From contig NZ_MKVL01000010.1 of assembly GCF_001899205.1 (NCBI RefSeq), positions 117,166 to 181,165 on the forward strand: a stretch of DNA of 64,000 bases, in the 5' to 3' direction. Numbering within the stretch: the stretch's first letter is position 1; each line of letters opens with the position of its first letter. The translations under genes were made by a program, and so were the position numbers. Below are positions 10,851 to 30,121 of this stretch, piece by piece. This DNA comes from Mesorhizobium sp. 65-26. Lineage in GTDB: Bacteria; Pseudomonadota; Alphaproteobacteria; Rhizobiales; Rhizobiaceae. Below the pieces are notes generated by a model. It was not told the DNA's origin, ran no database searches, and worked only from the letters and a program-made list of their open reading frames with translations.

Positions 10851-10968
10851 AAGCGGAGGGCGCATCAGAAATGGCGCTCAACCCATTGTTTTCGCGGCAT
10901 TCCCTGGGGGAAGTCGTCTCATCTTTATCCTGGACTTGTTCCAGGCAGCATATCGCGGAGAGCAGCGC

Positions 10969-12036: not shown

Positions 12037-12099
12037 ATGGGCGGGGGCGCGCCGCGCCCCTTCCGCCGCACCACCGGACATCAACATCGGAGGAGAGAC

Positions 12100-13916: not shown

Positions 13917-13940
13917 ACGACAGCAAGCGGAGAGACGAAC

Positions 13941-14921
13941 ATGCGAGCGCTGGTCTTTGAATCCCCCGACAAGCCTGTAGTCATCGACAAGCCGATGCCC
14001 GGCATCGCTCCCGGCGAGGTGTTGGTCAGGACCCGAACCGTCGGCATCTGCCATTCCGACTACGAGCTGCTGGCGGGCCGCTACATCATCCCGATTTCCT
14101 ATCCGGTGACGCCCGGCCATGAATGGTGCGGCGAGATCATCGAGGTCGGGCGCGCGGTGAAGGGCTGGCGCGTCGGCGACAGGGTGGTGGGCGAATGCGT
14201 GGTGCGCACGCCCGAGCGGCTGCATCATTTCGGCTTCTCTATGGACGGCGCCGACCAGGAATATTTCGCCGTCAATCCCGACTGGCTGCACAAGCTGCCC
14301 GACGGCATCGACGACAGGCGCGCCTCGCTGATCGAGCCGTTCACCTGCGGTTTCTACGCGGTGCTGCGCTCGGGCGGCACCAATGCCAGCGAGACGGTGG
14401 TGGTGTCGGGCGGCGGCACCATCGGCCTCGTCTCGGCCGCGGCCGCCATCGGCATGGGCGCGCGCGTCATCGTCGTTGATCCGCTCGCCTCGCGCCGCGA
14501 AGTGGCAAGCAGGCTCGGCGCCGACGCCGTGGTCGATGCGACAAGGGATCCGGTCGCCGAAGTCATGGAACTGACCGGCGGCAAGGGCGCCGATCTCGTG
14601 GTCGAAGCCTCCGGCCACGACGCCTCGCTTGCCAACACCTTCGAATTTGCCCGCGAGGAGGGGCGCGTCTCGATGGTCGGCATCAACATCGGCCGCAAGA
14701 TCGCGGTCGAGCTCGGCAAGATCCAGATCCGCAACCTGGCTGTGCGCGGCTGCATCGGCTCGCCCGGCGTGTGGCCGGCGGCCATCCGCTTCCTGGAACG
14801 CACCGGCATCGACCTTTCGCCCATCCAGACGCACAGCTTCGCGCTGGAGGACGCGGTCGCGGCCTTCGATCTCGGCAAGGATGCCGGCAAATGCATCAAG
14901 GTCACGCTGACCGCCAACTGA
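13941..14921 (+). CDS. Zn-dependent alcohol/polyol dehydrogenase (MDR)
   Basis: GICHSD, PGHEW, SGGGTIG, VVEASG; RBS GGAGA. Confidence 0.92.
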   Translation: MRALVFESPDKPVVIDKPMPGIAPGEVLVRTRTVGICHSDYELLAGRYIIPISYPVTPGHEWCGEIIEVGRAVKGWRVGDRVVGECVVRTPERLHHFGFSMDGADQEYFAVNPDWLHKLPDGIDDRRASLIEPFTCGFYAVLRSGGTNASETVVVSGGGTIGLVSAAAAIGMGARVIVVDPLASRREVASRLGADAVVDATRDPVAEVMELTGGKGADLVVEASGHDASLANTFEFAREEGRVSMVGINIGRKIAVELGKIQIRNLAVRGCIGSPGVWPAAIRFLERTGIDLSPIQTHSFALEDAVAAFDLGKDAGKCIKVTLTAN

Positions 14922-14933
14922 AGGGAGCAAGCA

Positions 14934-15233
14934 ATGTCCAGGCAATTGACCGTGGTTGCGCATCTGGTCGCGAGGCCGGCCAAGATCGAGGAGACGCGAA
15001 AGTTCCTGCTGTCGCTGATCGAGCCGACGCGGGCCGAGCCCGGTTGCATCGACTATGACCTGCACCAGGATGACGAGCGGCCGGCCGAGTTCACCTTCTA
15101 CGAGAACTGGAAGGACCGCGCGGCCTGGGACGCGCATATGCTGACGCCCAACCTGCACGAGTTCGCGCGGCGCGCCGACGAGTTGTTCGCCGTGCCGCCG
15201 CACATCCGGCTGATGACGATGATCAGCGCGTAG
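14934..15233 (+). CDS. Antibiotic-biosynthesis-monooxygenase (ABM)/putative quinol monooxygenase
   Basis: TRAEPGCIDYDLHQD...FTFYENWKDRAAWDAHM; RBS GGGAG. Confidence 0.88.
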   Translation: MSRQLTVVAHLVARPAKIEETRKFLLSLIEPTRAEPGCIDYDLHQDDERPAEFTFYENWKDRAAWDAHMLTPNLHEFARRADELFAVPPHIRLMTMISA

Positions 15234-15357
15234 GCATCCCGTGGCATCCGGCGGCATTCTCATTCTGGATATCTTTCGCGCCCGCGCCAGCGGCACCCGC
15301 GACTAGACTTTCACCATCCGGTGCTGGAGGGCGCCGGCGGCGATCAGGGAGGCGACG

Positions 15358-16077
15358 ATGGGCAGGCTCGACGGCAAGGTGGCACTGGTCAGCGGTGCCG
15401 CGCAAGGCATAGGGCGCGCGGTGGCCGAGCTGTTCGCCGAGGAGGGCGCCGTCGTCCATGCCGGCGACGTCAAGCCTGTCGCGCCGGCCCGCAATATCGA
15501 GCCGCTGACACTCGACGTCACCCGGCCCGAGGACTGGGCGAAGGCCGTCGATACGATCCTCGCCCGCCATGGCAGGCTCGACATCCTCGTCAACAATGCC
15601 GGCATCGTGCGCGCCTACGAGCAGATGCTGGAGACCGACCTGGAGGCGTGGAACGCGGTCGTCGCGGTCAACCTCACCGGTAGTTTCCTCGGCATCAAGG
15701 CGGTGCTGCCGGCCATGCGCGCGGCGGGCAGGGGCTCAATCGTCAACTTCTCGTCGATCTGGGGCAGCGTCGGCGTCGCCGGCGCGGCCGCCTACAACGC
15801 CGCCAAGGGCGGCGTGCGCAACATGACCAAGAACGCGGCCGTCACCTATGCCGGCGAGAACATCCGGGTCAATTCCGTGCATCCCGGATTGATCCGCACG
15901 CCGCTGGTGGTGGCGCAGTCGGACGAGATGAATGCCGGCATCATCGCCAAGACGTCGATGGGCCGTATGGGCACGCCTCTGGAAGTGGCCAGGGGCTGCC
16001 TGTTCCTGGCGAGCGACGAGGCTTCCTTCATCACCGGGGCCGAGCTGGTGATCGATGGCGGCTATCTCGCGCAATGA
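15358..16077 (+). CDS. Short-chain dehydrogenase/reductase (cyclic/secondary alcohol dehydrogenase-like)
   Basis: RBS GGAGG; SGAAQGIG, NNAG, YNAAK, RVNSVHPG, IDGGY. Confidence 0.94.
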   Translation: MGRLDGKVALVSGAAQGIGRAVAELFAEEGAVVHAGDVKPVAPARNIEPLTLDVTRPEDWAKAVDTILARHGRLDILVNNAGIVRAYEQMLETDLEAWNAVVAVNLTGSFLGIKAVLPAMRAAGRGSIVNFSSIWGSVGVAGAAAYNAAKGGVRNMTKNAAVTYAGENIRVNSVHPGLIRTPLVVAQSDEMNAGIIAKTSMGRMGTPLEVARGCLFLASDEASFITGAELVIDGGYLAQ

Positions 16078-16096
16078 ACGGGACCGGAGGACGGAT

Positions 16097-16492
16097 ATGA
16101 ACGTGACCAATGCGCGGATCGAGCCGACTATCGAGCATGGCGGCACCTGCCGCACCTATTTCATGGTGCCGAAGGAGGCGATGCGCGCCGAGACCGAGGG
16201 CTCCTACCTTGAATATGTCTCGGAGTTCGAGATAGCGGCCGGTTCTCATCTGGAGCCGCACCGCCACGACACGCACGAGTTCTACTACGTGCTCAAGGGC
16301 CGCGCGCTGATGCAGATCGGCGCCGAGAAGCGCGAGGTGGAGCCGGGCGACCTGATCCACATCCCGCCCAACGCCGTTCACAGCATCGCGCCGCTGGGCG
16401 AGGCGCCGGTGCGCGCGCTTGCCTTCGCGGCAAGCTTCCTGCCGCCGGGCGGCGCGGGCACCGAGGCCGAGAAGGCAGACCTGCCGGCGTGA
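16097..16492 (+). CDS. Cupin domain protein
   Basis: RBS GGAGGA; HRHDTHEFYYVLKG and PGDLIHIPPNAVH cupin motifs. Confidence 0.9.
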   Translation: MNVTNARIEPTIEHGGTCRTYFMVPKEAMRAETEGSYLEYVSEFEIAAGSHLEPHRHDTHEFYYVLKGRALMQIGAEKREVEPGDLIHIPPNAVHSIAPLGEAPVRALAFAASFLPPGGAGTEAEKADLPA

Positions 16493-16582
16493 CGGCAGGC
16501 TGAGAAAACGCATCCTCCCACGACTGAGCGGGATCGTCCGGGCAGACCGGCGTCCCGCTCTCTTTTTGCCGTGCCTGAAGCC

Positions 16583-16627
16583 TGATGTCCGAAGAATGTG
16601 AGGCGGCTTTCGGACGGCATCATGCTC
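16583..16627. repeat. Degenerate rhizobial REP/RIME-like palindromic element
   Basis: TGATGTCCGAA-gaatgtgaggcggct-TTCGGACGGCATCATGCTC: imperfect inverted repeat in an intergenic region, resembling from memory the short interspersed palindromes of Rhizobiales. Confidence 0.45.
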
Positions 16628-16718
16628 CCATCTCTTTGATTTGGAGCGGCGCGAATACGGGTTCCGATTTTGCCGGTCATGGGTTAGGACCGGCGCATTC
16701 AGTTTGGAAGGAACGAGC

Positions 16719-17828
16719 GTGCAGGCAGTCGATTGCGTAGTCGCCGGGGCTGGTGTCGTCGGTCTCGCTGTCGCCAGGGCGCTGGCGCTCGCCGGACGCG
16801 AGGTGCTGGTGATCGAGCAGGCCGACGCCATCGGCACCGAGACCAGCTCGCGCAATTCGGAAGTCATCCATGCCGGCCTTTACTACGAGCCGGGCAGCCT
16901 GAAGGCGCGGCTTTGCGTCGAAGGGCGCGAGCGGCTCTACGCCTATTGCGGCGAGCGCGGCATCGCCCATGCGCGCACCGGCAAGCTGGTGGTGGCGGCC
17001 GAGGAAGCGCAGTTCGACAAGCTGCGCGCGATCCGCGCCAATGCCGAGCAGAGCGGCGTCACCGATCTTCAACTGCTGAGCCGCGCCGAGGCGGAGCATC
17101 TGGAGCCGGCGCTGCGCTGCGCCGGCGCTCTGCTGTCGCCATCGACCGGCATCGTCGACAGCCATGCACTGATGTTGTCGCTGCGCGGCGATGCCGAGGC
17201 GGCCGGCGCCATGTTCGCCTTCCTGACCAGCGTCAGCTCGGTCGAGGCTGGGCAGAACGGCGTCGAGGTGCGGACGCTGGACGAGAACAGCGAAGGTTTC
17301 GCGCTGACCGCCGGCGCCTTCGTCAACGCCGCCGGGCTGGGCGCGCCGGCGCTGGCGGCGCGCATCCGTCACTTCCCGCAGGACCGCATTCCCCGCCAGT
17401 GGCTGGCGCGCGGCAACTATTTCTCGCTGACCGGCAAGTCGCCCTTTTCCCGGCTGATCTATCCGGTGCCGGTCGATGGCGGCCTGGGCGTCCACCTCAC
17501 CCTCGACCTCGGCGGGCGGGCGCGTTTCGGTCCGGACGTCGAATGGGTCGACCGCATCGATTACGCGGTCGACCCGCGTCGCGGCGACGTCTTCTACGAG
17601 GCGATCCGGCATTATTGGCCGGGCCTCGCCGACGGCGCGCTGCTGCCTTCCTATTCCGGGGTTCGGCCGAAGCTTTCCGGTCCCGGCCAGCCGGCGGCGG
17701 ACTTCATCATCCAGGGACCGGCCGACCATGGCGCTGGGCCGATCGTGAACCTGTTCGGCATCGAAAGCCCGGGGCTCACTGCAAGCCTGGCCATCGCCGA
17801 GCGCGTCGCCGGGCTGCTTGCCGCCTGA
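16719..17828 (+). CDS. FAD-dependent oxidoreductase, L-2-hydroxyglutarate oxidase (LhgO)-like
   Basis: GTG start after GGAAGGA; [37 protein letters not shown]. Confidence 0.9.
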
Positions 17829-18044
17829 ATCTGCGATCCAGCTGATGAACAGATTCCAGGGGCTCTCCCAAGCCATTGTTCGCGCGCACCTTTCCGGGTG
17901 CGCCGTCGCATAGGCGCGAACATCCAGATTGAGAATCATCGCGCATGCCCGTGCGCCGCGCCTCTGGCATGGTCGCCTCCTGGCATGCCGCCCCCGCGCG
18001 GTGGCGTGTCCGCCGCCAGCATGCGCGGGGAGGATTTTCGTGGA

Positions 18045-19163
18045 ATGACCAGCGCGCTGTTTTCGCCAATCTCGCTTCGCGGCCTGACCCTGCCGAACCG
18101 CATCGTCGTGTCGCCGATGTGTCAGTACAATTCGGTCGATGGCTCCGCCACCGACTGGCACATATTGCAGCTCGGCCAGTTCTCGCTCGGCGGCTCTGGC
18201 GGGCTGGTGATGACGGAAGCCACCAATGTCAGCATGGCCGGACGCATCACGCCGAAATGCGCCACGCTCTGCAATGACGACAACGAGCGGGCGCTGAAGC
18301 GCGTCATCGACTTCTGCCGCCAGTACGGCGTCGCGGCGCATGGCATCCAGCTCGGCCATGCCGGGCGCAAGGGGTCGACCCTGCCGCCGGCGCTCGGCGG
18401 CAAGCCGCTGACGGCGGAGCAGGGCGCCTGGGAGACGCTGGCGCCCTCGGCGCTCGCCTTCGACGAAGGCTGGCACGTGCCGCGGGCCATGAGCACGGCC
18501 GACATCGCCACCTTCAAGAACGATTTCGTCGCCTCGGTACGGCGTGCCGAGCGTATCGGCTACGACCTCGTCGAACTGCATGCCGGCCACGGCTATCTCA
18601 TGCACCAGTTCCTGTCGCCGCTGTCGAACCGGCGCACCGATGCCTATGGCGGCAGCCTGGAAAACCGCATGCGCCTGGTGCTGGAGACCTTCGAGGCGGC
18701 GCGCGCCGCGTGGCCGGCGGAAAAGCCCATGGGCGTGCGCGTGTCGGCCACCGACTGGGTGGAGGGCGGCTGGACGCTGCAGGACACGATCGAGCTTGCC
18801 AGGGCGCTGAAAGCGCTGGGCTGCGACTATGTCGACGCTTCGAGCGGCGCCCTCGACCCGCGCCAGAAGATCGAGCTCGGCGCGGGCTATCAGGTTCCCT
18901 TCGCCGAGGCGGTGCGCCGCGAAGCCGGTATTCCCACCATGGCCATCGGCCTGATTACCGGCGTGCGACAGGCCGAGGACATCATCGCCGGCGGCAAGGC
19001 CGACTTCATCTGCATGGCGCGCGGCGCCATGTGGGATCCTCGCTGGGCCTGGCACGCGGCCGAGGAACTGGGCGCCGAGGCGCCCTATGCGCCGCGCGCC
19101 ATGCCGGCCCACCCCAGCATGCGGCCGTTCGTGTTTCCCAACCGCAGGAAGTCGGCGGCCTGA
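18045..19163 (+). CDS. NADH:flavin oxidoreductase (old yellow enzyme family)
   Basis: LPNRIVVSPMCQY, IQLGHAGRK, ELHAGHGYLMHQFLSPLSNRRTDAYGGSLENR. Confidence 0.95.
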   Translation: MTSALFSPISLRGLTLPNRIVVSPMCQYNSVDGSATDWHILQLGQFSLGGSGGLVMTEATNVSMAGRITPKCATLCNDDNERALKRVIDFCRQYGVAAHGIQLGHAGRKGSTLPPALGGKPLTAEQGAWETLAPSALAFDEGWHVPRAMSTADIATFKNDFVASVRRAERIGYDLVELHAGHGYLMHQFLSPLSNRRTDAYGGSLENRMRLVLETFEAARAAWPAEKPMGVRVSATDWVEGGWTLQDTIELARALKALGCDYVDASSGALDPRQKIELGAGYQVPFAEAVRREAGIPTMAIGLITGVRQAEDIIAGGKADFICMARGAMWDPRWAWHAAEELGAEAPYAPRAMPAHPSMRPFVFPNRRKSAA

Positions 19164-19204: not shown

Positions 19205-20731
19205 TCACCGGACGGGAAGGGCGTAAAGGTCCTTGTAGGTTTCGCGCAGCACGTTCTTCTGCACCTTGCCCATCGTGTTGCGCGGCAGCTCGTCGACGAA
19301 GATCACGCGCTTCGGGTGCTTGTACCTGGCCATGCGCGGCGCAATCGCCGCCAGTATGTCCTCGGCGGTGATCGAGGCGCCCGGCGAGCGGACCACGACC
19401 GCGGTGACGCCCTCGCCGAAATCGGGATGGGCGACGCCGATGATCGCGCTTTCGAAGACGCCGGGCAGCGCGTCGATCTCGCTTTCCAGCTCCTTCGGAT
19501 AGATGTTGTAGCCGCCCGAAATGATCAGGTCCTTGCCGCGCCCGACGATGTGGACGTAGCCGTCGGGATCGACCAGGCCGAGGTCGCCGGTGATGAAGAA
19601 GCCGTCGTCGCGGAACTCCGCCTTGGTCTTCTCCGGCATGCGCCAGTAGCCGGCGAAGACGTTGGGGCCCTTGACCTCGATCATGCCGACCTCGCCCGCC
19701 GGCAGCACACCGCCGCCGCCTTCGGGATCGGCTATGCGCAGCGCGACGCCGGGAAGCGGGAAGCCCACCGTGCCGGCGCGGCGCTCGCCGTCGTAGGGAT
19801 TGGACGTGTTCATGTTGGTCTCGGTCATGCCGTAGCGCTCGAGGATGGCGTGGCCGGTGCGCTCGCGCCATGCCCGGTGCGTCTCGGCAAGCAGCGGCGC
19901 CGAACCGGAGACGAACAGGCGGATGTTGCGCGCCGCCTCGCGGTCGAGCCCGGACTGCTGCAGCAGTCTGACGTAGAAGGTCGGCACGCCCATCAGCGAG
20001 GTGGCCTGCGGAAGCAGGGAGACGATGCGGGCGGGATCGAATTTCGTCTCGAACAGCATGGAGGCGCCCGCCATCAGGATGACGTTGGTGGCGACGAAGA
20101 GGCCGTGCGTGTGGAAGATCGGCAGCGCGTGGATCAGCACGTCCCCGGCGCTGAAGCGCCATTCGTCGACCAGGACCCTGGCGTTGGAGGCCAGGTTCTC
20201 GTGGGTCAGCATGGCGCCCTTGGAGCGACCCGTCGTGCCGGAGGTGTAGAGGATCGCGGCGAGGTCGTCCGGACGGCGCGCGATGGTGTCGAAATCCCCG
20301 GGTTGGCCCGAGGCAAGCTCCATCAAGGACCCTTCTCCGGCGCGCCCGAGCGTCGCGGTGTCGGCGCCCGACTTTGCAGCCAGGGTTGCGATGTCGACGG
20401 CGCGCGCGGGATCGCACACGACGAGGCGCGGCTCGGCGTCGCCGAAGAAATAGCCGAGCTCGGCCAGCGTGTAGGCCGTGTTGAGCGGCAGGAAGACGGC
20501 TCCGGCGCGCACGCAGGCGAGGTAGAGCATGAGCGCTTCCGGGCTTTTCTCGACCTGCACCGCGACGCGGTCACCCGGCCGAACGTTGAGCCGCGTCAGC
20601 GCGTGCGCCAGTTGCGCCGAACGCGTCAGCATGTCGCCATAGCTCAGCGCGCGGCCATCGTCGGTGCGCATCAGCGGCCGCTCCGGAGCCGGCATGCGGG
20701 CGCGGAAGGCATCGAACAGATGATTGGTCAT
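19205..20731 (-). CDS. matB: Malonyl-CoA synthetase
   Basis: AMP-binding YTSGTTGRSKG, ERYGMTET, NTMGKVQKN; MTNHLFDA N-terminus typical of rhizobial MatB; adjacent to malonyl-CoA decarboxylase. Confidence 0.92.
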   Translation of the reverse strand: MTNHLFDAFRARMPAPERPLMRTDDGRALSYGDMLTRSAQLAHALTRLNVRPGDRVAVQVEKSPEALMLYLACVRAGAVFLPLNTAYTLAELGYFFGDAEPRLVVCDPARAVDIATLAAKSGADTATLGRAGEGSLMELASGQPGDFDTIARRPDDLAAILYTSGTTGRSKGAMLTHENLASNARVLVDEWRFSAGDVLIHALPIFHTHGLFVATNVILMAGASMLFETKFDPARIVSLLPQATSLMGVPTFYVRLLQQSGLDREAARNIRLFVSGSAPLLAETHRAWRERTGHAILERYGMTETNMNTSNPYDGERRAGTVGFPLPGVALRIADPEGGGGVLPAGEVGMIEVKGPNVFAGYWRMPEKTKAEFRDDGFFITGDLGLVDPDGYVHIVGRGKDLIISGGYNIYPKELESEIDALPGVFESAIIGVAHPDFGEGVTAVVVRSPGASITAEDILAAIAPRMARYKHPKRVIFVDELPRNTMGKVQKNVLRETYKDLYALPVR

Positions 20732-20752
20732 GGTGTCGTCCCGGTCAGTATG

Positions 20753-22090
20753 TCAGGCGGAGCGCGCTGGCGCTGCTCGCGATGCGCGCGCCAGCCGGGT
20801 GACGGCGGGCGCCGCGGCCACGGCGTTGCCGGCGGCGAACAATTCGTGGTTCTTCTCGATGTCGTCAAGCAGGTAGCGGTAGTTGACCATAAGGCCATGC
20901 GCCTGGCGCAGCGCGCGCGGCGAGAGGTCGCCGAGCGCGTTGATGCGCTCGAGCCGCGCGCCGTTGCCGAGGTGGAAGCGGGCGACGGGGTCGATCACCG
21001 CGCCCGAAGCCGTGCGGGCCTCGACCAGGTAGCGCGCGGCGAGCGGAGGCAGCAGGCGGGTGGCCTGGCGGCGCGTCGTCTCGTCCTCCTGCCAGCTATC
21101 GCCGGCGACGAGCCGCAGCGCCTCGTCGGCCGCCGGGTCGCCCTGCTGCCCGGCCAGCCAGCGCGCGAAGCCCGGGAGTGGCGAGAGGGTGACGAAATCG
21201 GTGAGGCCGGGAAGGTCGCGGCGCAGGTCCTCGACCACCTGCTTGATCAGGAAGTTGCCGAAGGAGATGCCGCGCAGGCCCTCCTGGCAGTTCGAGATGG
21301 AATAGAACACGGCCGTCGTCGCCTCGCGCGGGTCGAGCAGCGGCCGTCCATCGGCGAGCAACTCGCCGATCGTCGCCGGCATGGCGCGGGTGAGGGCGAT
21401 CTCGACGAAGATCAGTGGCTCGTCTTCCAGCCTCGGATGGAAGAAGGCGTAGCAGAGCCGATCGCGCGGCTCGAGCCTGCGGCGCAGGTCATCCCAGCCG
21501 TTTATGGCGTGCACGGCCTCGTAGCGAATGATCTTCTCCAGGATGCTGGCCGGTGTCGACCAGTCGATGCGGCGCAGCAACAGGAAGCCCCGGTTGAACC
21601 AGGACGACAGGAGATGTCTGAGGTCGGTGTCGACAACGCCGAGGTCCGGCACGTCGGCAAGATGGCCGAGCAGTTCCTCGCGCATGCGCACCAGCGTCGC
21701 CATGCCGCCGGGCGCGAGGTTCAAACGGCGCAGGAGCTCCTGCCGGGCGGGCTCCGCCGCCGCGTGCAGTGTAAGTGCTGCGCCTTCCCCGGGCTGGGCG
21801 CGGTAAGCCTCGACGGCCACCGCCAGCCGCGCGTGGTCGACGCCGAAGCTGTCGCGCAGCATATGCAGGAACCCCAGTCGAGCGCTGGCATCCAGTCCTT
21901 CCCAACGCTCCAGGATCTCGCGGGCGCGGGCAACACCCGATGCCTCGCCCTTGCCGCTCAACAGGCTGGCGCAGAGCCGCCGCATCGCCTCTGGCGAAAT
22001 GGGGCCGGCAGGGCGGGGCAGGCCTATCGCCTGGCGGCCGCGATCGGCGATCGCGCCCAGCAGCTCGGAAAGGAAAAGACCGCGGTTCAT
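20753..22090 (-). CDS. matA: Malonyl-CoA decarboxylase
   Basis: SWFNRGFL, EKIIRYEAVH, FYSISNCQEGLRGISFGNFLIKQVV, DPVARFHLGNGA, GLMVNYRY. Confidence 0.95.
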   Translation of the reverse strand: MNRGLFLSELLGAIADRGRQAIGLPRPAGPISPEAMRRLCASLLSGKGEASGVARAREILERWEGLDASARLGFLHMLRDSFGVDHARLAVAVEAYRAQPGEGAALTLHAAAEPARQELLRRLNLAPGGMATLVRMREELLGHLADVPDLGVVDTDLRHLLSSWFNRGFLLLRRIDWSTPASILEKIIRYEAVHAINGWDDLRRRLEPRDRLCYAFFHPRLEDEPLIFVEIALTRAMPATIGELLADGRPLLDPREATTAVFYSISNCQEGLRGISFGNFLIKQVVEDLRRDLPGLTDFVTLSPLPGFARWLAGQQGDPAADEALRLVAGDSWQEDETTRRQATRLLPPLAARYLVEARTASGAVIDPVARFHLGNGARLERINALGDLSPRALRQAHGLMVNYRYLLDDIEKNHELFAAGNAVAAAPAVTRLARASRAAPARSA

Positions 22091-22169
22091 GGATGCTGGC
22101 CCGAGGGTTGCGTGTGCCGGAGGGTATCGCTTCGAGGCGCGTCCGGAAAGGCATTTGCCATGCATCAAA

Positions 22170-22181
22170 AATATCGATATT
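22170..22181. promoter_or_regulatory. Perfect 12-bp palindrome AATATCGATATT in AT-rich divergent promoter region (matA / SDR)
   Basis: Seen directly in a markedly AT-rich 22155-22236 segment. Confidence 0.55.
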
Positions 22182-22236
22182 AAATTACAATATCAAATAA
22201 AATCGCTAAAATAGGTACACCGAAGGAACACGATCG

Positions 22237-23010
22237 ATGGACGTTGCAGGACAATTCTCGCTGACCGGCAAGACCGCCTTCATCACCGGTGGTGGCGGCG
22301 GGCTGGGCCGCGCCGTCGCCGAAGCCTATCTCGCCTCTGGGGCCTCGGTCGCGATCTGCGACGTCGACGCCGGCAAGGTCGAAGCGGCGGTGAGGGACCT
22401 CGCGGTGGGCGGCCAAGTCGTAGGCGCGCCTTGCGATGTCACCAGCGCGGCTGGTGTCGCCGATGCCGTCGGCAAGGCGGAAGCGGCGCTGGGTGGCGGG
22501 ATCGACATACTGGTCACGGCCGCCGGCTTTGCCAGGCGCACCGCGGCTGTCGACCTCGATCCGGAGGAGTTCGACCGGATCATGGCGATCAACGTCAAGG
22601 GCACGTTCCTGCCGGCGCAGGCGGTGGCGCGCGGCATGATCGCGCGCGGGCAGGGCGGCAAGATCATCACCATCGGCTCGGTGCGCGGCCTTGTCGGCCA
22701 TCCGCTGGGCTATGTCAGCTACGGCACCAGCAAGGGCGCCGTGCATCTCTTGACCCGGCAACTGGCGACGGAATGGGCGCCGCACCGCATCAATGTCAAC
22801 TGCATCGCGCCCTCGGTGATCAAGACACCGCTCGCCGATTTCATCCTCAAGACGCCCGAGGTGCGCGACCTTTTCATGTCGCGCATCCCGTTCAACCGCG
22901 CGGCCGAGCCGGAGGAATTCGTCGGCGCCGCCGTCTTCCTGGCGGCCAGGGCGTCCGATTTCGTGACCGGCCAGGTGCTGTTCGTCGACGGGGGCAGCAC
23001 CGCCGGCTGA
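22237..23010 (+). CDS. Short-chain dehydrogenase/reductase (gluconate-5-dehydrogenase-like)
   Basis: TGGGGGLG, YGTSK, NVNCIAP, FVDGG. Confidence 0.93.
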   Translation: MDVAGQFSLTGKTAFITGGGGGLGRAVAEAYLASGASVAICDVDAGKVEAAVRDLAVGGQVVGAPCDVTSAAGVADAVGKAEAALGGGIDILVTAAGFARRTAAVDLDPEEFDRIMAINVKGTFLPAQAVARGMIARGQGGKIITIGSVRGLVGHPLGYVSYGTSKGAVHLLTRQLATEWAPHRINVNCIAPSVIKTPLADFILKTPEVRDLFMSRIPFNRAAEPEEFVGAAVFLAARASDFVTGQVLFVDGGSTAG

Positions 23011-23034
23011 AAGACGCTCCGCCGTAAGGCAGGA

Positions 23035-23781
23035 TCAGCCGCGCCTGCGGGTTCCCTTCGCCTGCGCCGTCCCGGCAGTACCATCCTCGCCGAAACGGGC
23101 CATGCACAGCGACGTCGTCAGGCGATAGTGGTCGAGCAAAGCCGCGACGGCGCCATCGGCGTCGCCATTCATCGCGCGCTCGGCGATCAGCCGGTGTTCG
23201 GCAAGCTCGTCGCGCCTGGCGCCCTTGTTGCCGCGCGCGAACTGGCGGTAGCGATAAGCCTGGTCGGCAAGCTGGTCGCAGAAACCGATCAGCCAGCGCG
23301 ACCGGCAGGCCGAGATCAGCGCGCGATGGAAAGCGCGGTGGAGCTTCTCCCAGTCGGGATTGGTGGCCGAGGGATCCTGCGGCAGGCGGCGCGGCGCGCG
23401 CGACAGGCGATGCAGCGCCAGCACGAGCTGTTCCTCCCAGTCCGCAGTGCGGTGGGCGATGGATTCGCGCAGCGCCCGTTCTTCCAGCCAGCACCGCGTG
23501 CGGGTCAATTCCTCCAGTTCGGCGGCGCTGAGTGGCATGATGAAGAAGCCGCGCTGGTCGTGCCGGCCGAGAAGGCCTTCCGAGGCGAGCCGGTTCAGTG
23601 CCTCGCGCACAGGTGACGCGCCGGCGCCGTAGCGGGCGACCGCCCATTCCACCTTCACCTTGCTCTCGGCTTCCAGCACGCCGTGCAGCAGGTCATCGCG
23701 AAGCTGCTGGTAGACAGTGCTGGCGAGCGTGCTCTTGGGCGCCGCGCCGTCGTCATTGAGATCGCCCGTGGTATAGGTCAA
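23035..23781 (-). CDS. GntR-family regulator with FCD domain
   Basis: TTG start after GGAG; STVYQQLRDDLLHG...SPVREALNRLASEGL, FHRALISAC, EHRLI. Confidence 0.92.
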   Translation of the reverse strand: MTYTTGDLNDDGAAPKSTLASTVYQQLRDDLLHGVLEAESKVKVEWAVARYGAGASPVREALNRLASEGLLGRHDQRGFFIMPLSAAELEELTRTRCWLEERALRESIAHRTADWEEQLVLALHRLSRAPRRLPQDPSATNPDWEKLHRAFHRALISACRSRWLIGFCDQLADQAYRYRQFARGNKGARRDELAEHRLIAERAMNGDADGAVAALLDHYRLTTSLCMARFGEDGTAGTAQAKGTRRRG

Positions 23782-23951
23782 AGCGGCTCCTGCTGCCTGC
23801 GGGGCATTGGCTTCAGGTCCGTTGCCGGTCCCGGCACCGCCGCTTGCTCCCTGCCTATCCGGCCCCGCGCGAATGCGGCGCGGCTGGCCGGAACCCACGC
23901 GCACCATACAGCGTCGGCCTTCCGACCCTCAAGAGGGCAAAGGCGAAGGCG

Positions 23952-24950
23952 TCAAAGCGGAATGGTCGCTCCGTTCTGTCCGGCCGAGGCAACAATGGCC
24001 TCGAACAGCCTGATGTTGTCGAGAAGCTGGGCGTTGGTGAAGCGATAGGGCCGTTCACCGGCGACGGCCGCCGCCCAGGCCTCGAAGTTGGCGGTAACGG
24101 TGTCGGTGGGGTGGTGGGTGGTCACCGTGCGTGGCGCGTTGGTGCCGGTGCAGACTGTGACCAGCGTCGGCTTTCCCTGGTCGACATTGCCCTCGCTGGC
24201 AACCTCGACCCAGCCCTTGTCGCCGAACAGCGTGACGCGTCCGTAGTAGGGCGTGCAGGACAGGAGCGTGATGGTGCCGCGCGCGCCGGAGCCGAAGCGC
24301 AGCGACACAGTGACGAAATCGGTGGCCGGCGGCTCGAAGATCAGGCTCGACGTCTGCGCCCGCACCTCCACCGGCGTGCCGAGGAAGGCAACGCAAAGGT
24401 CCGTCTGGTGGATGCCGGTGGCGGTCATCATGCCGGCCGGCGCGTGCCTTGGATCGAGACGCCAGTTGGAGCGGTCGATGCCACGGAACAGGTCGTGGCT
24501 GATGTTGGCCTCGAACAGCAGTGGCCTGCCTAGCGTGCCGTCCTCCAGCAGCTTGCGGACCTGTTCGAAACCCGGCTCGTAGCGGCGCTCGTGGCCGATG
24601 CCCAGCACCTTGCCGGCCTGCTGGCAGGCAGCGATGATGCGTGCCGCGCCAGCCGCATCCATGGCGAGCGGCTTCTCGCAGAACAGTTCCTTGCCGGCCC
24701 CCAGCACCGACAGGCACTGCGCCTCGTGCAGTCGATGCGGCGTGGCGAGGATGACGCCCTCCACCGCCTCGTCGGCGAGGACGGCATCGAGGTCGGCGAC
24801 ATAGGCGACGCCAAGTCCGGAGAGGAAATCCAGCGCGCCCTCCAGCGGCGAGGGGTCGACCCCGTGCAGCACCTCGAAGCGGGGGCTTTTCACGAGGCAG
24901 GAAATGATCTGCTTGCCCCACCAGCCAAGGCCGGCCACCGCGACGCGCAT
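23952..24950 (-). CDS. Gfo/Idh/MocA family oxidoreductase
   Basis: AGLGWWG, ILATPHRLH, FCEKPLA, GIHQTD. Confidence 0.92.
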   Translation of the reverse strand: MRVAVAGLGWWGKQIISCLVKSPRFEVLHGVDPSPLEGALDFLSGLGVAYVADLDAVLADEAVEGVILATPHRLHEAQCLSVLGAGKELFCEKPLAMDAAGAARIIAACQQAGKVLGIGHERRYEPGFEQVRKLLEDGTLGRPLLFEANISHDLFRGIDRSNWRLDPRHAPAGMMTATGIHQTDLCVAFLGTPVEVRAQTSSLIFEPPATDFVTVSLRFGSGARGTITLLSCTPYYGRVTLFGDKGWVEVASEGNVDQGKPTLVTVCTGTNAPRTVTTHHPTDTVTANFEAWAAAVAGERPYRFTNAQLLDNIRLFEAIVASAGQNGATIPL

Positions 24951-24952
24951 TC

Positions 24953-25240
24953 TCAACCCTGCCGCTTCTGGAAGGCGGTGATGGCGATCGACCCCCAGAC
25001 GCCGCCCGTGAGGTAGGGGTCAGCGCCGGTGAAGGCCTCGACCGCCGACCGGCCCTCGGCCTCGACGATCAGCAGGCTGCCCTTCATCGTCGTGCCGTCG
25101 TCCTCGACCAGCGGCCCAGCGGTAACGATGCGCACGCCATAATCCGCCGCCGTCGCCAGATGCGCGGTGTGGGCGGGCTGGTTCAGGCGCCGCCGTTCCG
25201 GACCGTCGGTCCCGTCGAGGGCATGGATGGCAAAGAGCAT
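24953..25240 (-). CDS. YciI family protein
   Basis: MLFAIHALD...AHTAHL...TAGPLVEDDGTTMKGSLLIVEA...DPYLTGGVW. Confidence 0.9.
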   Translation of the reverse strand: MLFAIHALDGTDGPERRRLNQPAHTAHLATAADYGVRIVTAGPLVEDDGTTMKGSLLIVEAEGRSAVEAFTGADPYLTGGVWGSIAITAFQKRQG

Positions 25241-25346
25241 CTGCGTTCCTCCGCTGCCGCGCGTCGAGCGGCCGGCCCGAAGCATAGGCGGGTCCATGCT
25301 TCCGGCCGGCTCCATCTTTCTCATTCCGGGAATCTCTGGTCTCTAT

Positions 25347-25391
25347 GAAAATCGATAATTTATTGACATGCCGTAAATCAACGATTTTAAC
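25347..25391. promoter_or_regulatory. AT-rich divergent promoter (YciI / FAH) with TTGACA -35 and AAATC-N3-GATTT inverted repeat
   Basis: TTGACA 25363-25368; AAATC 25375-25379 / GATTT 25383-25387; ATCGATA at 25351. Confidence 0.5.
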
Positions 25392-25418
25392 AAAAGCGTT
25401 GCCGGCAGGAGGATTTGC

Positions 25419-26306
25419 ATGCGCTTCGCGGTCTGCATGGAAGAAGGCGAGCGGCGTCTGGGCGTGGTGCGTGGCGATCGGGTCGCGACGCTCGGCTCGC
25501 CGAGCCCGGATCTGCTGGAAGTCATCGGCTGGGGCAGGGACGGGCTGGAGGCCATCTCCAAGCAGGCGGACGTGCTGCCGGCCGGCGCCTGGCGGCCGCT
25601 TTCCACAGTTCGGCTGGCGTTGCCCTTCCAACCTGCCGGGAAAGTCATCTGCCTCGGCCTGAACTATCGCGCGCATGCCAGGGAAGGCGGCTATGAAGTG
25701 CCGGACTATCCCGCGCTGTTCCTGCGCGTGGCGACGTCGCTGCTGCCGGCCGGCGAGGCGATCGTGGCGCCGCTCGTCTCGGAGAAGCTCGACTTCGAGG
25801 CCGAGTTGATGGTGATCATCGGGCGTGGCGGCCGGCACATTCCGGAGGCTCAGGCGCTCGACCATGTCTTCGGCTATACCTGCTTCAACGATGCCTCCAT
25901 CCGCGACTTCCAGCGCAAGACGCACCAATGGACGCCGGGGAAGAACTTCGATCGGACCGGCGCCATCGGGCCGGTTGTGGTTACGGCGGACGAACTGCCG
26001 GCGGGCGCCGCGGGCCTGCGCATCGCCTGCCGGCTCAACGGCGCGACCGTACAGGACGCCAGCACCGCCGACATGCTGGTGCCGGTGGCGATGGCGGTGT
26101 CGCTGGTCTCCGAATTCATGACGCTGGAACCCGGCGACATGATCGCCATGGGCACGCCGCAAGGGGTGGGGCATGCGCGAACGCCGCCACTGTGGATGCG
26201 CCCTGGTGATACGGTGGAAGTCGAGATCGAAGGCATCGGCATATTGCGCAATGGCGTGGTGGCCGAAGGCGAGGAAGCCCCGCTTCAGGGCGCCGCGGGG
26301 AAATAA
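25419..26306 (+). CDS. Fumarylacetoacetate hydrolase (FAH) family protein
   Basis: KVICLGLNY, LDFEAEL, NDASIRD, WTPGKNFD, PGDMIAMGTP. Confidence 0.95.
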   Translation: MRFAVCMEEGERRLGVVRGDRVATLGSPSPDLLEVIGWGRDGLEAISKQADVLPAGAWRPLSTVRLALPFQPAGKVICLGLNYRAHAREGGYEVPDYPALFLRVATSLLPAGEAIVAPLVSEKLDFEAELMVIIGRGGRHIPEAQALDHVFGYTCFNDASIRDFQRKTHQWTPGKNFDRTGAIGPVVVTADELPAGAAGLRIACRLNGATVQDASTADMLVPVAMAVSLVSEFMTLEPGDMIAMGTPQGVGHARTPPLWMRPGDTVEVEIEGIGILRNGVVAEGEEAPLQGAAGK

Positions 26307-26400
26307 CGTGTAGTCTTCCCGCATCGGAACTTCTGAGCGGAAAGGACCTGGTCGCCCGATTGCCTCAATGCGCTGAGCCAGGCCGGAAAGGACAAGCGGC

Positions 26401-27255
26401 ATGCGTGACATCACCGCCGATACCATCACACAGGCTGTCGAGCGCGCCTGGGGCAAGGCGCCTGATCCGCGCCTGCGGCACCTGCTGCAGCGGCTTACCC
26501 ACCACGTCCACGCCTTTGCGCGCGAGGTCGGGCTGACGCATGAGGAGTGGCTGGCGACCATCGAATTCCTCTGGCGGGCGGGGCGCATCAGCGACGACAA
26601 GCGCAATGAGTTCGCGCTGTTGTCCGACGTGATGGGCATCACCTCGCTGGTCGATCTTCTCAACGCCGCGCCGGGCGCCACCATCGGCAGCGTGCTAGGC
26701 CCGTTCTATTCCGACGACAGCCCAACGGTGCCGTTCGGCGCCGACCTTGCCGGTGACAATCCCGGCACGGTGGTGCTGGTGACCGGCGTGGTGCGCGACA
26801 CCGCCGGCAAGCCGCTGCCCGGCGCCGTCGTCGATATGTGGCAGACCGACGCCAAGGGCGCCTATGCAACGCAAGACGCCGCCCAGGACGACGACAATCT
26901 GCGCTGCAAGCAGGTCTGCGACGGGCAGGGGCGCTACGCATTCACCACGGTCGAGCCGGCACCCTACACAATTCCGATGGACGGACCGGTCGGCGCGCTG
27001 ATCAACACGGTCGGTCGCACGCCGTGGCGGCCGTCACATTTCCACTTCATCGTGCGGGCGCAGCATCACCGGCCGATCGTGACCGAGATCTTCTTCGAGC
27101 ACGACCATCATGTGGACAGCGATGCCGTCTTCGGCGTGCGGGAGGCGCTGGTGCGGCGGCTGGAGCAGGCGGAGGCCGTCGCGCCGCCCGGCGTCGCGCG
27201 ACGGCCGGAGCGGCGGCTCGATTTCGATTTCACGCTGGTTCCGCTGCCGGACTGA
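26401..27255 (+). CDS. Intradiol ring-cleavage dioxygenase (hydroxyquinol/catechol 1,2-dioxygenase-like)
   Basis: RNEFALLSDVMG, GSVLGPFY, WQTDAKGAY (Tyr), PAPYTIPMDGPVG (Tyr), RPSHFHF (His-x-His), DSDAVFGV. Confidence 0.93.
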   Translation: MRDITADTITQAVERAWGKAPDPRLRHLLQRLTHHVHAFAREVGLTHEEWLATIEFLWRAGRISDDKRNEFALLSDVMGITSLVDLLNAAPGATIGSVLGPFYSDDSPTVPFGADLAGDNPGTVVLVTGVVRDTAGKPLPGAVVDMWQTDAKGAYATQDAAQDDDNLRCKQVCDGQGRYAFTTVEPAPYTIPMDGPVGALINTVGRTPWRPSHFHFIVRAQHHRPIVTEIFFEHDHHVDSDAVFGVREALVRRLEQAEAVAPPGVARRPERRLDFDFTLVPLPD

Positions 27256-27299
27256 GCAGCACCTCGACCGACAGCACAACAATCGCGCAGGACTTTGCC

Positions 27300-28682
27300 A
27301 TGACCGATACGCCCAGCATCCTGATCCGCAACGCGATCGTGCTGTCGATGGACGACGCCGTGGGCGATTTCCTCGATGGCGACGTGCTGGTGAGCGGCGA
27401 CAGGATTGCCGCCGTCGGCCACGGATTGCCGGCCGGCGAGGCTGAGGTGATCGACGGGCGCGGGCGCATCGTCATCCCCGGCATCGTCAACGCGCATATG
27501 CACACATGGCAGACGGGCCTGCGCGGGCTGACCGCCAACATGACGCTGCTGGAATATTTCCGCTGGGTGCATCGCGGGCTGGCCACGGCCTTCCGACCCG
27601 CCGACATCCACATCGCCACGCTTGCCGGCGCGCTCGGCCAGATCAATGCGGGCGCCACGACGCTCGGCGACTGGTGCCATAACAATCCGACGCCGGACCA
27701 TACGGACGCCGCCGTCGACGCGCTGTTCGAAAGCGGCATCCGCGCCGTGTTCCTGCACGGCTCGCCAAAGCCCGATCCGAAACCGGGCCAGCCGCATTTC
27801 TCCGAAGTGCCGCATCCGCGCCACGAGGTCGAAAGGCTGATGCGCGGCCGTTTTGCCAGCCGCGATCAACTGGCGACGCTGGGGCTGGCGATCCTGGGGC
27901 CGCATTATTCGACTATGGAGGTGGCGCGCGCCGACTTCCGGCTGGCGCGCGAATTCGGCCTGGTCGCCTCGATGCACCAGGGCGGCGGCGAGGCGAAGAC
28001 GCCGGGCGGCTGGGAAAGGCTGGAGGCGGAAGGGCTGGTCGGCACCGGCATCAACATCGTGCATGGCAACAATCTCAGCGACGAGCAGATCCGCCGCTTC
28101 GTCGGCGCGGGCGTATCGTTCACGGTGACGCCGGAAAATGAGATGACACAGGGCCACGGCTTTCCCATCACCGGCCGGGTGCTGTCGGCCGGCGGCCAGC
28201 CATCGTTCGGCGTCGACATCGAGTCGCTCGTCTCCAGCGACATGTTCACGGTGGCGCGCATGGCGCTCGCCTGCCAGCGCGCGCTGGACAACGACCTGTC
28301 GCGCAGGCAGACCGGCGCTATTCCCGAGACTTGCTCGGTCAGCACGCGCGACGCGCTGCGCTGGATCACGTTGGAAGGCGCGCGCATGTTGGGACTGGCC
28401 GACCGGATTGGTTCGCTGACGCCCGGCAAGCAGGCCGACATCGTCATGCTGCGCGCCGATGACTGGAACATGTGGCCGGTGCATGATCCCTGTTCCACCG
28501 TCATCATGCAGGCCAGCACAGGCAATGTCGAAGCGGTGATGATCGCGGGGCGGTTCCGCAAGCGCGATGGCCGGCTGGACTGGCCCGACGCCGAGCACGT
28601 CAAGCGCGAACTGGCGCAGTCGGGCCGGCGCATCGTCGCCGAGCTCGGCATTCCGACGCAACTGCGGACAGCGGCGGCCTGA
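27300..28682 (+). CDS. Metal-dependent amidohydrolase (AtzA/TRZ-ATZ-like)
   Basis: PGIVNAHMHTWQ (HxH), SMH, VHG, FGVD, GSLTPGKQADIV. Confidence 0.9.
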   Translation: MTDTPSILIRNAIVLSMDDAVGDFLDGDVLVSGDRIAAVGHGLPAGEAEVIDGRGRIVIPGIVNAHMHTWQTGLRGLTANMTLLEYFRWVHRGLATAFRPADIHIATLAGALGQINAGATTLGDWCHNNPTPDHTDAAVDALFESGIRAVFLHGSPKPDPKPGQPHFSEVPHPRHEVERLMRGRFASRDQLATLGLAILGPHYSTMEVARADFRLAREFGLVASMHQGGGEAKTPGGWERLEAEGLVGTGINIVHGNNLSDEQIRRFVGAGVSFTVTPENEMTQGHGFPITGRVLSAGGQPSFGVDIESLVSSDMFTVARMALACQRALDNDLSRRQTGAIPETCSVSTRDALRWITLEGARMLGLADRIGSLTPGKQADIVMLRADDWNMWPVHDPCSTVIMQASTGNVEAVMIAGRFRKRDGRLDWPDAEHVKRELAQSGRRIVAELGIPTQLRTAAA

Positions 28683-28798
28683 CACCGGGCATGCCGGGGC
28701 AACCGCCTGTCCCCCCTCAGGCCATCAAGCCTTCATCAGCCTTTCGGGACAAAGGATTGTTTTGGGCTGACTTTCCCGGGTCAAGGCCAGACGTTGGG

Positions 28799-29014
28799 CT
28801 AGTTGTGCAGCGTTTCTCCGGGAGGCGCCAGCGTCTGCAGCGCCTCAGCCGAGAGCACCATCAGCGCGTAGGCGATCTCCTTCGGCGCCCAGCCGGCTTC
28901 CGCCGCCTTGGACGTCAGGCCGAGGAAGGACGGCTCCAGGGCGAACCGGCATTCGGCCTGGTAGGTGGCTTCTGTGATGTCGGGTCTCGGCCGGTTGATC
29001 AGCGCTTTCATCAT
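28799..29014 (-). CDS. Small hypothetical protein (71 aa)
   Basis: ECRFALEPSF..L...AAEAGWAPKEIAYAL resembles a recurrent small Rhizobiales hypothetical family (from memory); codon style looks coding. Confidence 0.6.
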   Translation of the reverse strand: MMKALINRPRPDITEATYQAECRFALEPSFLGLTSKAAEAGWAPKEIAYALMVLSAEALQTLAPPGETLHN

Positions 29015-29303
29015 GGGGCTCTTCTCGACTGAAGCGCCACGCGCCCAAACGGGACGCGCGAAGGCGCTCCAAACACTCCGCCGCGTGATGTCCGAGGAAT
29101 CATCCCCATCCCCCGGGCAACCCGCGTATTGCCCCTTCCCCAGGTTCAGATGTTGCGCATCGCGGCGTCCGCGTCAATGGAGCGGGAAGGCCTGGAATCA
29201 AGCACGCTTGCGTGAACGGGCGACTTTGGAGCGCGCGCCCTCTTTCCGTCGGATTGCCGGCGCTCCATCCTGGGCAGCTCATTGCGCAAAAGGGATTGTC
29301 CAG

Positions 29304-29879
29304 ATGAAACGTCTCGTCCTCGCCGCCGCCTGGCTCGCGATTGGCGTGCTGGCCGGTCAGGTCGCCGTCGCGAAGGAAAGGACCGGACTTGCCGACGCCA
29401 CCGTGGTGATCGTGCGCCATGGCGAAAAGCCTGACGAGGGCGCCGGCCTCTCGCCGGCGGGCGAGGCGCGCGCCAAGGCCTATGTCGGCTATTTCGAGCA
29501 TCTTTCGCTCGACGGCACGCCGTTCAGGCCCGATACGCTGGTGGCAAGCGCCGACTCCAAGAACAGCGCCCGCGAAAGGCTGACGCTGGAGCCGTTGGCG
29601 CAGGCGCTCGGCCTGCCGATCGACCAGCGTTTCGCCGACAAGGAGGTGAAACAGCTTGCGCACGCGCTTGCCGGCGAAAGTCATGGCAAGTCGGTGCTGA
29701 TCGCCTGGCACCATGGCGAACTCGCCAAGCTCATCGATGCACTCGGCGCCAACCCGGCCACGCTTCTGCCCGACGGACGCTGGCCGGATGACGTGTTCAA
29801 CTGGGTGGTCGTGCTACGCTATGACCACCAGGGCAAGCTCATTCCCGGCTCGCCTCGCCTGCTGCACGAGCCGTTCTGA
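29304..29879 (+). CDS. Secreted histidine-phosphatase-superfamily protein
   Basis: Signal peptide MKRLVLAAAWLAIGVLAGQVAVA; IVRHGEKP catalytic motif, R..LTLEPLA, IAWHH. Confidence 0.8.
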   Translation: MKRLVLAAAWLAIGVLAGQVAVAKERTGLADATVVIVRHGEKPDEGAGLSPAGEARAKAYVGYFEHLSLDGTPFRPDTLVASADSKNSARERLTLEPLAQALGLPIDQRFADKEVKQLAHALAGESHGKSVLIAWHHGELAKLIDALGANPATLLPDGRWPDDVFNWVVVLRYDHQGKLIPGSPRLLHEPF

Positions 29880-29926
29880 CACCATCCGTTTGCGAATCGT
29901 TAATCCGCTTCCGCTAATGGAAGGGG

Positions 29927-30070
29927 ATGACCAAGGATCTGGGCAACAGGCGCTACGCGCCGGCACAGCAGAACCGGGACACTTTCTTCTCCCGGATCGC
30001 CCCGGCATTGTTCCCGCTCGCGGCGGCGGTGCTGGGCTATTTCGTCGGGCGTCACTTCTTCGGTTTCTGA
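29927..30070 (+). CDS. Unannotated 47-aa small membrane protein
   Basis: Below track cutoff. GGAAGGGG RBS then ATG; MTKDLGNRRYAPAQQNRDTFFSRIAPALFPLAAAVLGYFVGRHFFGF*, with GC3-biased codons and a C-terminal hydrophobic helix. Confidence 0.6.
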   Translation: MTKDLGNRRYAPAQQNRDTFFSRIAPALFPLAAAVLGYFVGRHFFGF

Positions 30071-30121
30071 GGCGCTCCTCGCGCCGACCATGGTCATCAG
30101 CCAGCCCACCGCCTCGGTCCT

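Follow-up and report, generated by a model that had tools for sequence, protein, structure and literature searches.

The window analysed here is a stretch of 64,000 nucleotides from Mesorhizobium sp. 65-26 (G+C content 67%; contig C10 of a 6.84-Mb genome with a marker-gene completeness of 100%), and the genes in question are matA and matB, encoding malonyl-CoA decarboxylase and malonyl-CoA synthetase, which lie within a cluster of aromatic ring-cleavage genes (19205–28682). Comparisons of gene order, gene content and promoter sequences lend good support to the conclusion that matA-matB are a co-regulated part of the ring-cleavage pathway and not a stand-alone operon for malonate uptake. We consider it fairly probable that malonate is made inside the cell, presumably through hydrolysis of a ring-fission product to pyruvate plus malonate by the FAH-superfamily enzyme of the cluster, and that from there MatB and MatA would lead to acetyl-CoA.

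The cluster comprises four transcription units arranged as two divergent pairs: 1) the minus-strand unit matA-matB, opposed to a plus-strand gene for an SDR protein, and 2) a minus-strand unit for a YciI-family protein, a Gfo/Idh/MocA oxidoreductase and a GntR/FCD regulator, opposed to a plus-strand unit for FAH, an intradiol dioxygenase and an amidohydrolase. The genes were identified with Pfam and NCBIfam models and the public gene calls, which place every one of them where a sequence-only reading of the window had put it and bear out its remark that no matC or TRAP carrier adjoins matAB.

matA lies directly upstream of matB with a gap of 21 bases. The matB product scores 858 bits against the malonyl-CoA synthase model NF005702 (cut-off 558), and MatB and MatA are 72% and 60% identical, respectively, to the proteins of the Sinorhizobium meliloti matPQMAB operon. 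Most often, the matAB loci of the family sample were arranged as GtrA | MatP-MatQ-MatM-MatA-MatB (11 of 20). The genome of the present species contains no match to MatC_N (PF07158), MadL or MadM and, by tblastn with S. meliloti queries, no ortholog of MatP or GtrA; the only MatM-like matches by tblastn are generic TRAP permeases (27–33% identity) on other contigs. The GntR of the cluster is 25% identical to GtrA, and its gene is placed beyond the SDR gene, not next to matA. A second matAB pair is present on a different contig (G000:C25, locus L003, 8535–14123, outside the window). There, matB-matA and an AllG-like gene (PF06545) follow one another, and genes for a nitronate-monooxygenase-like protein, an NMT1-type binding protein and an ABC permease run divergently from them; this locus, too, has no malonate carrier. 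The same arrangement was seen in another genus (L118), and this pair may have a link to the metabolism of nitronate or of malonic semialdehyde.

The intergenic regions of the two divergent pairs are rich in A+T within a genome of 67% G+C and carry related sites. The matA/SDR region contains the palindrome AATATCGATATT at 22172–22183 and the motif AAAATCGCTAA at 22199–22209, and in the YciI/FAH region the motifs AAAATCGATAA (25348–25358, plus strand) and AAAATCGTTGA (25378–25388, minus strand) flank a TTGACA hexamer. The motif overlaps promoter-like hexamers, which in the matA/SDR region are found on both strands. Written as an 11-base pattern, AAAATCGNTNA, it occurs three times in the 64 kb (at 22199, 25348 and 25378), always in one of the two divergent promoters; 0.15 occurrences were expected, and none of 100 shuffles gave three. 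The pattern is found at the same three places in the corresponding islands of four related Mesorhizobium species, in which the intergenic blocks are conserved whereas their flanks have diverged, and was not found in 11 loci carrying the same matA ortholog outside the island. Because the GntR/FCD gene is the sole regulator gene in the cluster, its product is presumed to recognise the motif, and it probably controls both divergent promoter pairs via these AAAATCG-type sites.

An ortholog of the dioxygenase was detected in 4 of 150 other Mesorhizobium species sampled (81–83% identity), one of them being M. metallidurans STM 2683, whose island is 82% identical. All four carry matB and matA at the same spot of the same island, so that, with the present species, the pair is found in 5 of 5 carriers; the Gfo/Idh/MocA gene is absent from one related island (L005). 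The matA orthologs of the four related islands are about 96% identical to matA in 11 other Mesorhizobium species that do not have the island. At those off-island loci, matB is missing beside matA in 7 of 11, as against both genes being kept in all five island carriers, which suggests that the pair decays when not in the island. The intact, motif-bearing matAB pair goes with the island.

To follow the association into other orders, an alignment of dioxygenase orthologs was searched against one genome per species, yielding 80 loci; neighbouring genes were mapped by tblastn and representative loci were annotated. Two recurrent cluster types were found. Type 1 (n = 35) has the layout YciI | FAH, RutE-like nitroreductase, often OsmC, DctP, DctQ, DctM, dioxygenase | GntR, and its hosts are members of the Roseobacter group, Hoeflea, Devosia, Roseibium, Thalassospira and Pseudomonas marincola; metagenome-assembled SAR116-related and Opitutales genomes have incomplete or more loosely arranged forms of it. 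The type 1 orthologs are 45–52% (dioxygenase), 64% (FAH) and 44% (GntR) identical to the proteins of the window, and neither the window nor any of the four related Mesorhizobium islands contains the TRAP transporter, RutE-like reductase or OsmC genes. Type 2 (n = 17; for example, L027, L028, L032, L043, L048, L061 and L072) contains genes for IclR, a citryl-CoA-lyase-like protein (NF004868), a family III CoA-transferase, YciI, TRAP components, a PRK08204-like amidohydrolase and a MetE-like protein, and looks like another undescribed downstream route. The amidohydrolase adjoining the dioxygenase in type 2 clusters is a 33% relative of that in the window. A YciI-family gene is present in both types, the relationship being a match at the Pfam level with no blastp match to the YciI protein of the window. 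Neither type 1 nor type 2 clusters, among them the type 2 examples named above, contain a maleylacetate reductase gene.

matA is present in the locus in 17 of 35 type 1 clusters and in none of the 17 of type 2 (Fisher p = 3e-4). Its type 1 positions are of at least four kinds: beside YciI, beyond GntR, between the dioxygenase and GntR genes, and divergent from an HMGL-like gene. At the level of the genome, malonyl-CoA decarboxylase (PF05292) was detected in 30 of 35 type 1 genomes (86%), 7 of 17 type 2 genomes and 51 of the 150 genomes of the family sample (34%), with Fisher p-values of 0.002 for type 1 versus type 2 and 2e-8 for type 1 versus the family sample; all of these p-values overstate the significance, since related genomes are not independent. 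The linkage of matAB with ring cleavage exceeds chance. The five type 1 genomes giving no malonyl-CoA decarboxylase match are all metagenome-assembled, three of them being only 2.2–2.4 Mb in size, and MdcA was not found in them either.

It was considered whether the TRAP transporter of the related clusters is MatPQM, in which case they would be ordinary malonate operons with passenger genes. This was rejected: MatP had no blastp match (E<1e-5) to the binding protein of either type, MatM was only 27–29% identical, and GtrA was 25–33% identical to the cluster regulators. Because the binding protein is unlike MatP and the regulators show only this low identity to GtrA, type 1 clusters appear to import something other than malonate, yet they keep matAB. 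Compared with solved structures, the type 1 binding protein has distant matches only (≤52 bits). An HMGL-like, homocitrate-synthase-like gene (406 aa) adjoins GntR or matA in many type 1 clusters, several of which have no FAH (L037, L041, L064, L074, L076, L077, L082, L084, L090, L013 and L015), and may provide an alternative C–C cleaving or condensing step.

When 55 MatA proteins were placed in a tree, those linked to a dioxygenase fell into several clades (at least two and probably at least three), interleaved with MatPQM-linked ones. Six label changes are needed on the tree, at least two of them forced by well-supported branches; the linkage therefore arose, or was kept, repeatedly. MatA of the Mesorhizobium island is closer to the S. 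meliloti/Bosea type than to the marine type 1 MatA.

A set resembling that of the window was found in Acidisoma cellulosilyticum (L059), with SDR (66% identity), GntR (69–70%), FAH (52%), dioxygenase (53%) and YciI (48%), the SDR ortholog being beside FAH and the dioxygenase. Two sugar-type ABC systems border this set, as do homologs of dehydrogenases encoded upstream in the window (ADHzn1, 67%; SDR_a, 58%), which supports a tie between the sugar-/cyclitol-like island upstream in the window (10756–19163) and the ring-cleavage genes. No MatA or MatB was found in A. cellulosilyticum. Since it has a maleylacetate reductase gene 9 kb from the dioxygenase gene, and malonate decarboxylase MdcA on the same contig, maleylacetate reductase and matAB look like alternative ways onward. 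For the same reason, Acidisoma was set aside as a counter-example, i.e. as a cluster without malonyl-CoA decarboxylase.

The sequence-only reading had held that matAB belongs to the ring-cleavage cluster and that malonate arises internally from a ring-cleaved aromatic compound or N-heterocycle. Recurrent adjacency, co-occurrence, the common motif and the absence of a carrier favour the functional linkage; an N-heterocycle or barbiturate-type origin was dropped, there being no pyrimidine-oxidation genes and no backing from the TRZ/ATZ-like amidohydrolase (594 bits against PRK08204).

The dioxygenase belongs with the hydroxyquinol-type enzymes, scoring 215, 209, 201, 198 and 196 bits against five such structures (best, 1TMX, 215 bits) as compared with at most 124 bits against catechol and chlorocatechol enzymes, and it falls under every NCBIfam catechol dioxygenase cut-off. 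Its residues Y155, Y189, H213 and H215 are invariant among 14 orthologs and may correspond to the two Tyr and two His iron ligands of 1TMX. tblastn with two annotated maleylacetate reductases from Pseudarthrobacter chlorophenolicus plasmid pACHL02 revealed no ortholog in the genome, where the best matches (29–32% identity) are iron-alcohol-dehydrogenase relatives, and no match in the window; the same two queries retrieved orthologs of 40–50% identity at six other loci.

FAH (229 bits against PF01557) is of the small HpcE/FAHD1/diketo-acid-hydrolase type. The nearest NCBIfam model is 2,4-didehydro-3-deoxy-L-rhamnonate hydrolase (181 bits, cut-off 500), and the protein scores under every NCBIfam equivalog cut-off; alignments to five solved relatives show conservation of its E-x-E, N-D and G-K positions. 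The best NCBIfam neighbours of the SDR protein are sugar-acid dehydrogenases, which makes it a possible 4-dehydrogenase giving a 2,4-diketo acid. The Gfo/Idh/MocA protein matches an IolG-like model weakly (104 bits, cut-off 355). For YciI, the only solved relatives are HI0828 and TftG, a dehydrochlorinase of the hydroxyquinol pathway, and both are weak matches.

From these data the following route is proposed. A hydroxyquinol-type polyphenol, supplied here probably by the sugar-/cyclitol-like island upstream and in the marine relatives by a TRAP-imported acid, would be opened by the intradiol dioxygenase. As there is no maleylacetate reductase, the ring-fission product could not take the usual route to 3-oxoadipate and would instead be brought to a 2,4-diketo dicarboxylate, a step in which YciI and the SDR protein may assist. 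FAHD1, NagK and the rhamnonate/fuconate hydrolases convert R-CO-CH2-CO-COOH to R-COOH and pyruvate. If FAH acts in the same way on 2,4-dioxohexanedioate, R is CH2-COOH, and the product would therefore be malonate. On chemical grounds, this substrate could be the expected keto form of the intradiol product of 1,2,3,5-tetrahydroxybenzene, or could arise if maleylacetate were hydrated and oxidised, with the SDR protein as a candidate enzyme. MatB would convert malonate to malonyl-CoA and MatA malonyl-CoA to acetyl-CoA, which would also clear an inhibitor of succinate dehydrogenase, and GntR/FCD would switch both divergent promoter pairs through their common sites.

Several observations weigh against this route. 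Hydroxyquinol yields maleylacetate and no 2,4-diketo acid, so that the route requires either additional steps or a substrate with more hydroxyl groups. The similar-scoring PDB neighbours of FAH are a mixture of decarboxylases (HpcE, YisK and OPET decarboxylase) and hydrolases (6J57 and 8GSR), so that by sequence it could be either a hydrolase or a decarboxylase/isomerase. Moreover, the reductase encoded in type 1 clusters is a RutE equivalog, 'malonic semialdehyde reductase' (266 bits, cut-off 152; also its name in PGAP), which hints at malonic semialdehyde and not malonate as the C3 product. The ring product might thus be split into pyruvate and malonic semialdehyde, with MatB and MatA only mopping up malonate formed by oxidation of the semialdehyde, or malonyl-CoA formed otherwise; in the marine relatives the RutE-like enzyme would be the main outlet, giving 3-hydroxypropionate, and in the window the SDR protein could substitute for it, as YdfG does in E. 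coli. Atom and redox arithmetic allows this (maleylacetate + water = pyruvate + malonic semialdehyde), and in some type 1 loci FAH is replaced by the HMGL-like gene, of a lyase/aldolase family. However, MatB requires free malonate, none of the clusters encodes an aldehyde dehydrogenase for oxidation of the semialdehyde to malonate, RutE is absent from the window, and the strong association at the genome level is with malonyl-CoA decarboxylase. We therefore regard this scheme as unlikely.

matA is not confined to the ring-cleavage island, which counts against an exclusive role: in 11 island-free Mesorhizobium species (L128–L138) its ortholog lies between N-acetylglucosamine genes (NagA, SIS, GntR/UTRA and a BadF-type kinase) and rpe. 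In addition, S. meliloti MatA and MatB, to which the proteins of the window are so similar (60% and 72% identity), are described as serving growth on malonate in the account of Chen et al. 2010 given in PMC5237526, which also notes that malonate is abundant in legume roots. matAB could accordingly serve the ordinary use or detoxification of external plant malonate, taken up via an unrecognised carrier, and be merely beside an aromatic cluster on a mobile catabolic island. This is quite improbable given that the linkage recurs in marine non-rhizobial bacteria with different MatA lineages, that the genome has neither a known malonate carrier nor a GtrA/MatR ortholog, that the promoter motif is common to matAB and the FAH-dioxygenase operon and absent at the off-island matA, and that malonyl-CoA decarboxylase is so frequent in type 1 genomes compared with the family sample. 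MatB enzymes accept substituted malonates, and the cluster has no CoA-transferase or thiolase for a C6 acid; MatB and MatA might then act on another dicarboxylate (a ring-fission acid or 3-oxoadipate, decarboxylated as its CoA ester) without any involvement of malonate. Such an activity is very hard to reconcile with the score of matB, 300 bits over the cut-off, and its identity to a bona fide MatB, with the use of the same matA ortholog (about 96%) outside the island, and with the lack of any sign of divergence in these copies. Internal formation of malonate from the ring-fission product, followed by its conversion to acetyl-CoA, thus appears the best account of the cluster.

Features of the matAB ring-cleavage cluster (coordinates are positions in the window)
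Feature	Position	Strand	Evidence
matB, malonyl-CoA synthetase, 508 aa, second gene of the matA-matB unit	19205..20731	-	NF005702, AMP-binding domains
matA, malonyl-CoA decarboxylase	ORF 20753..22168; public call starts 22090 (445 aa)	-	PF17408 + PF05292 (MCD_N + MCD)
matA/SDR divergent promoter region	22091..22236	.	Sequence, motif statistics, conserved blocks
SDR-family oxidoreductase, 257 aa	22237..23010	+	adh_short_C2 domain
GntR/FCD regulator, 248 aa (public call)	23035..23781; ORF to 23907	-	PF00392 + PF07729
Gfo/Idh/MocA oxidoreductase, 332 aa	23952..24950	-	Pfam
YciI-family small protein, 95 aa (public call)	24953..25240	-	PF03795
YciI/FAH divergent promoter region	25241..25418	.	Motif pair, TTGACA hexamer
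FAH-superfamily enzyme, 295 aa	25419..26306	+	PF01557
Intradiol dioxygenase, hydroxyquinol 1,2-dioxygenase subgroup, 284 aa	26401..27255	+	Dioxygenase_N + Dioxygenase_C
TRZ/ATZ, cytosine-deaminase-like amidohydrolase, 460 aa, last gene of the FAH-dioxygenase unit	27300..28682	+	PRK08204

Past the amidohydrolase gene, the ORFs of the next 1.4 kb or so (28683–30121) are all small and match no family (public calls of 71, 191 and 47 aa), after which comes a gene for a Na+/H+ exchanger-Usp fusion. At lower coordinates than matAB, the window encodes an ABC binding protein (5358–6512), and a gene for an FAD-dependent oxidoreductase of the DAO family (16641–17828) lies between the cupin and OYE genes; in the related islands L004, L006 and L007, OYE directly follows cupin with no DAO-family gene there, and the island lacking Gfo (L005) has no OYE gene either. 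The exact dioxygenase protein (26401–27255) was found in 71 blocks of the public assembly collection, indicating that the species has been sequenced many times.

Each part of the cluster belongs to an enzyme family already known, and the novelty lies in their joining into a lower pathway without the reductase. We put forward, tentatively and at somewhat less than even confidence, that this is a widespread and undescribed lower pathway for ring cleavage of the hydroxyquinol/tetrahydroxybenzene type, in which FAH and YciI lead to pyruvate and malonate, MatB and MatA are the committed last steps, and neither maleylacetate reductase nor the 3-oxoadipate enzymes are needed. The full-text literature, as searched with few subscription journals covered, yielded no paper in which bacterial hydroxyquinol-type dioxygenases are linked with malonate, MatAB or FAH. 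A 2026 preprint on SAR116 (10.64898/2026.07.17.739263) notes that hydroxyquinol dioxygenase genes occur there in the absence of maleylacetate reductase and concludes that they serve detoxification, not carbon gain. If our proposal is true, it would account for the hydroxyquinol dioxygenases that stand as orphans in Roseobacter-group and SAR116 bacteria, and the marine and soil Alphaproteobacteria without maleylacetate reductase, among which hydroxyquinol-type dioxygenases are common, would fully assimilate such polyphenols as pyruvate and acetyl-CoA, changing the genome-based view of polyphenol turnover in marine dissolved organic matter and the rhizosphere. It would also name an internal bacterial source of malonate, explain why matAB is kept without a malonate carrier in many genomes, and give malonyl-CoA decarboxylase a catabolic role beyond external malonate.

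Among known systems, the hydroxyquinol pathway (Nocardioides simplex, 1TMX; P. chlorophenolicus, cph; Burkholderia, tft) shares with the cluster a dioxygenase of the hydroxyquinol subgroup and, in the case of the 2,4,5-T pathway, a YciI-family protein accompanying it (TftG), but FAH, MatB and MatA stand here in place of maleylacetate reductase and the 3-oxoadipate enzymes. The non-phosphorylative L-rhamnose and L-fucose pathways, NagK and FAHD1 have in common with it the same FAH subfamily (PDB 8GSR and 6J57) and a neighbouring SDR gene, and the reaction proposed for FAH is of the same type as that of the L-rhamnose/L-fucose diketo-acid hydrolases (R-CO-CH2-CO-COOH to R-COOH + pyruvate). It differs from these hydrolases in its score (181 bits versus the cut-off of 500), in its aromatic context and in that the predicted product is malonate, not lactate or fumarate.

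In the fungal 1,2,3,5-tetrahydroxybenzene pathway (Martins et al. 2023, PMC10832562), an enzyme for ring cleavage, a small protein and an FAH-like enzyme are all required and are encoded in one cluster, as here. The likeness is by kind of enzyme, and the fungal ring-cleavage enzyme is a DUF3500 protein and not an intradiol dioxygenase. Deletion of the fungal FAH-like gene leads to accumulation of acetopyruvate, the decarboxylation product expected from 2,4-dioxohexanedioate (2,4-dioxoadipate), so that the fungal pathway fits, by analogy, the substrate suggested for FAH. Malonate and MatAB are not mentioned in PMC10832562. A further system of this kind is the breakdown of phloroglucinol by Rhodococcus BPG-8 (Armstrong and Patel 1993, cited in that paper); acetopyruvate stands close to the end of these routes.

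Outside Mesorhizobium, a closely related operon with matAB is that of type 1, as on plasmid pDY25-C of Pacificitalea manganoxidans (NZ_CP021407.1), which has orthologous dioxygenase, FAH and GntR and carries matA-matB beside YciI. In contrast to that operon, the window has SDR, Gfo/Idh/MocA and amidohydrolase genes instead of those for TRAP, RutE-like and OsmC proteins, and its MatA is from another clade. With matRABC of Rhizobium leguminosarum and gtrA-matPQMAB of S. meliloti, the cluster shares the same two enzymes and, with the latter, the order matA then matB. It is distinguished from both in that neither the cluster nor the rest of the genome encodes a MatC or MatPQM carrier or a GtrA/MatR ortholog, and in that matAB is embedded in a ring-cleavage cluster with which it has promoter motifs in common.

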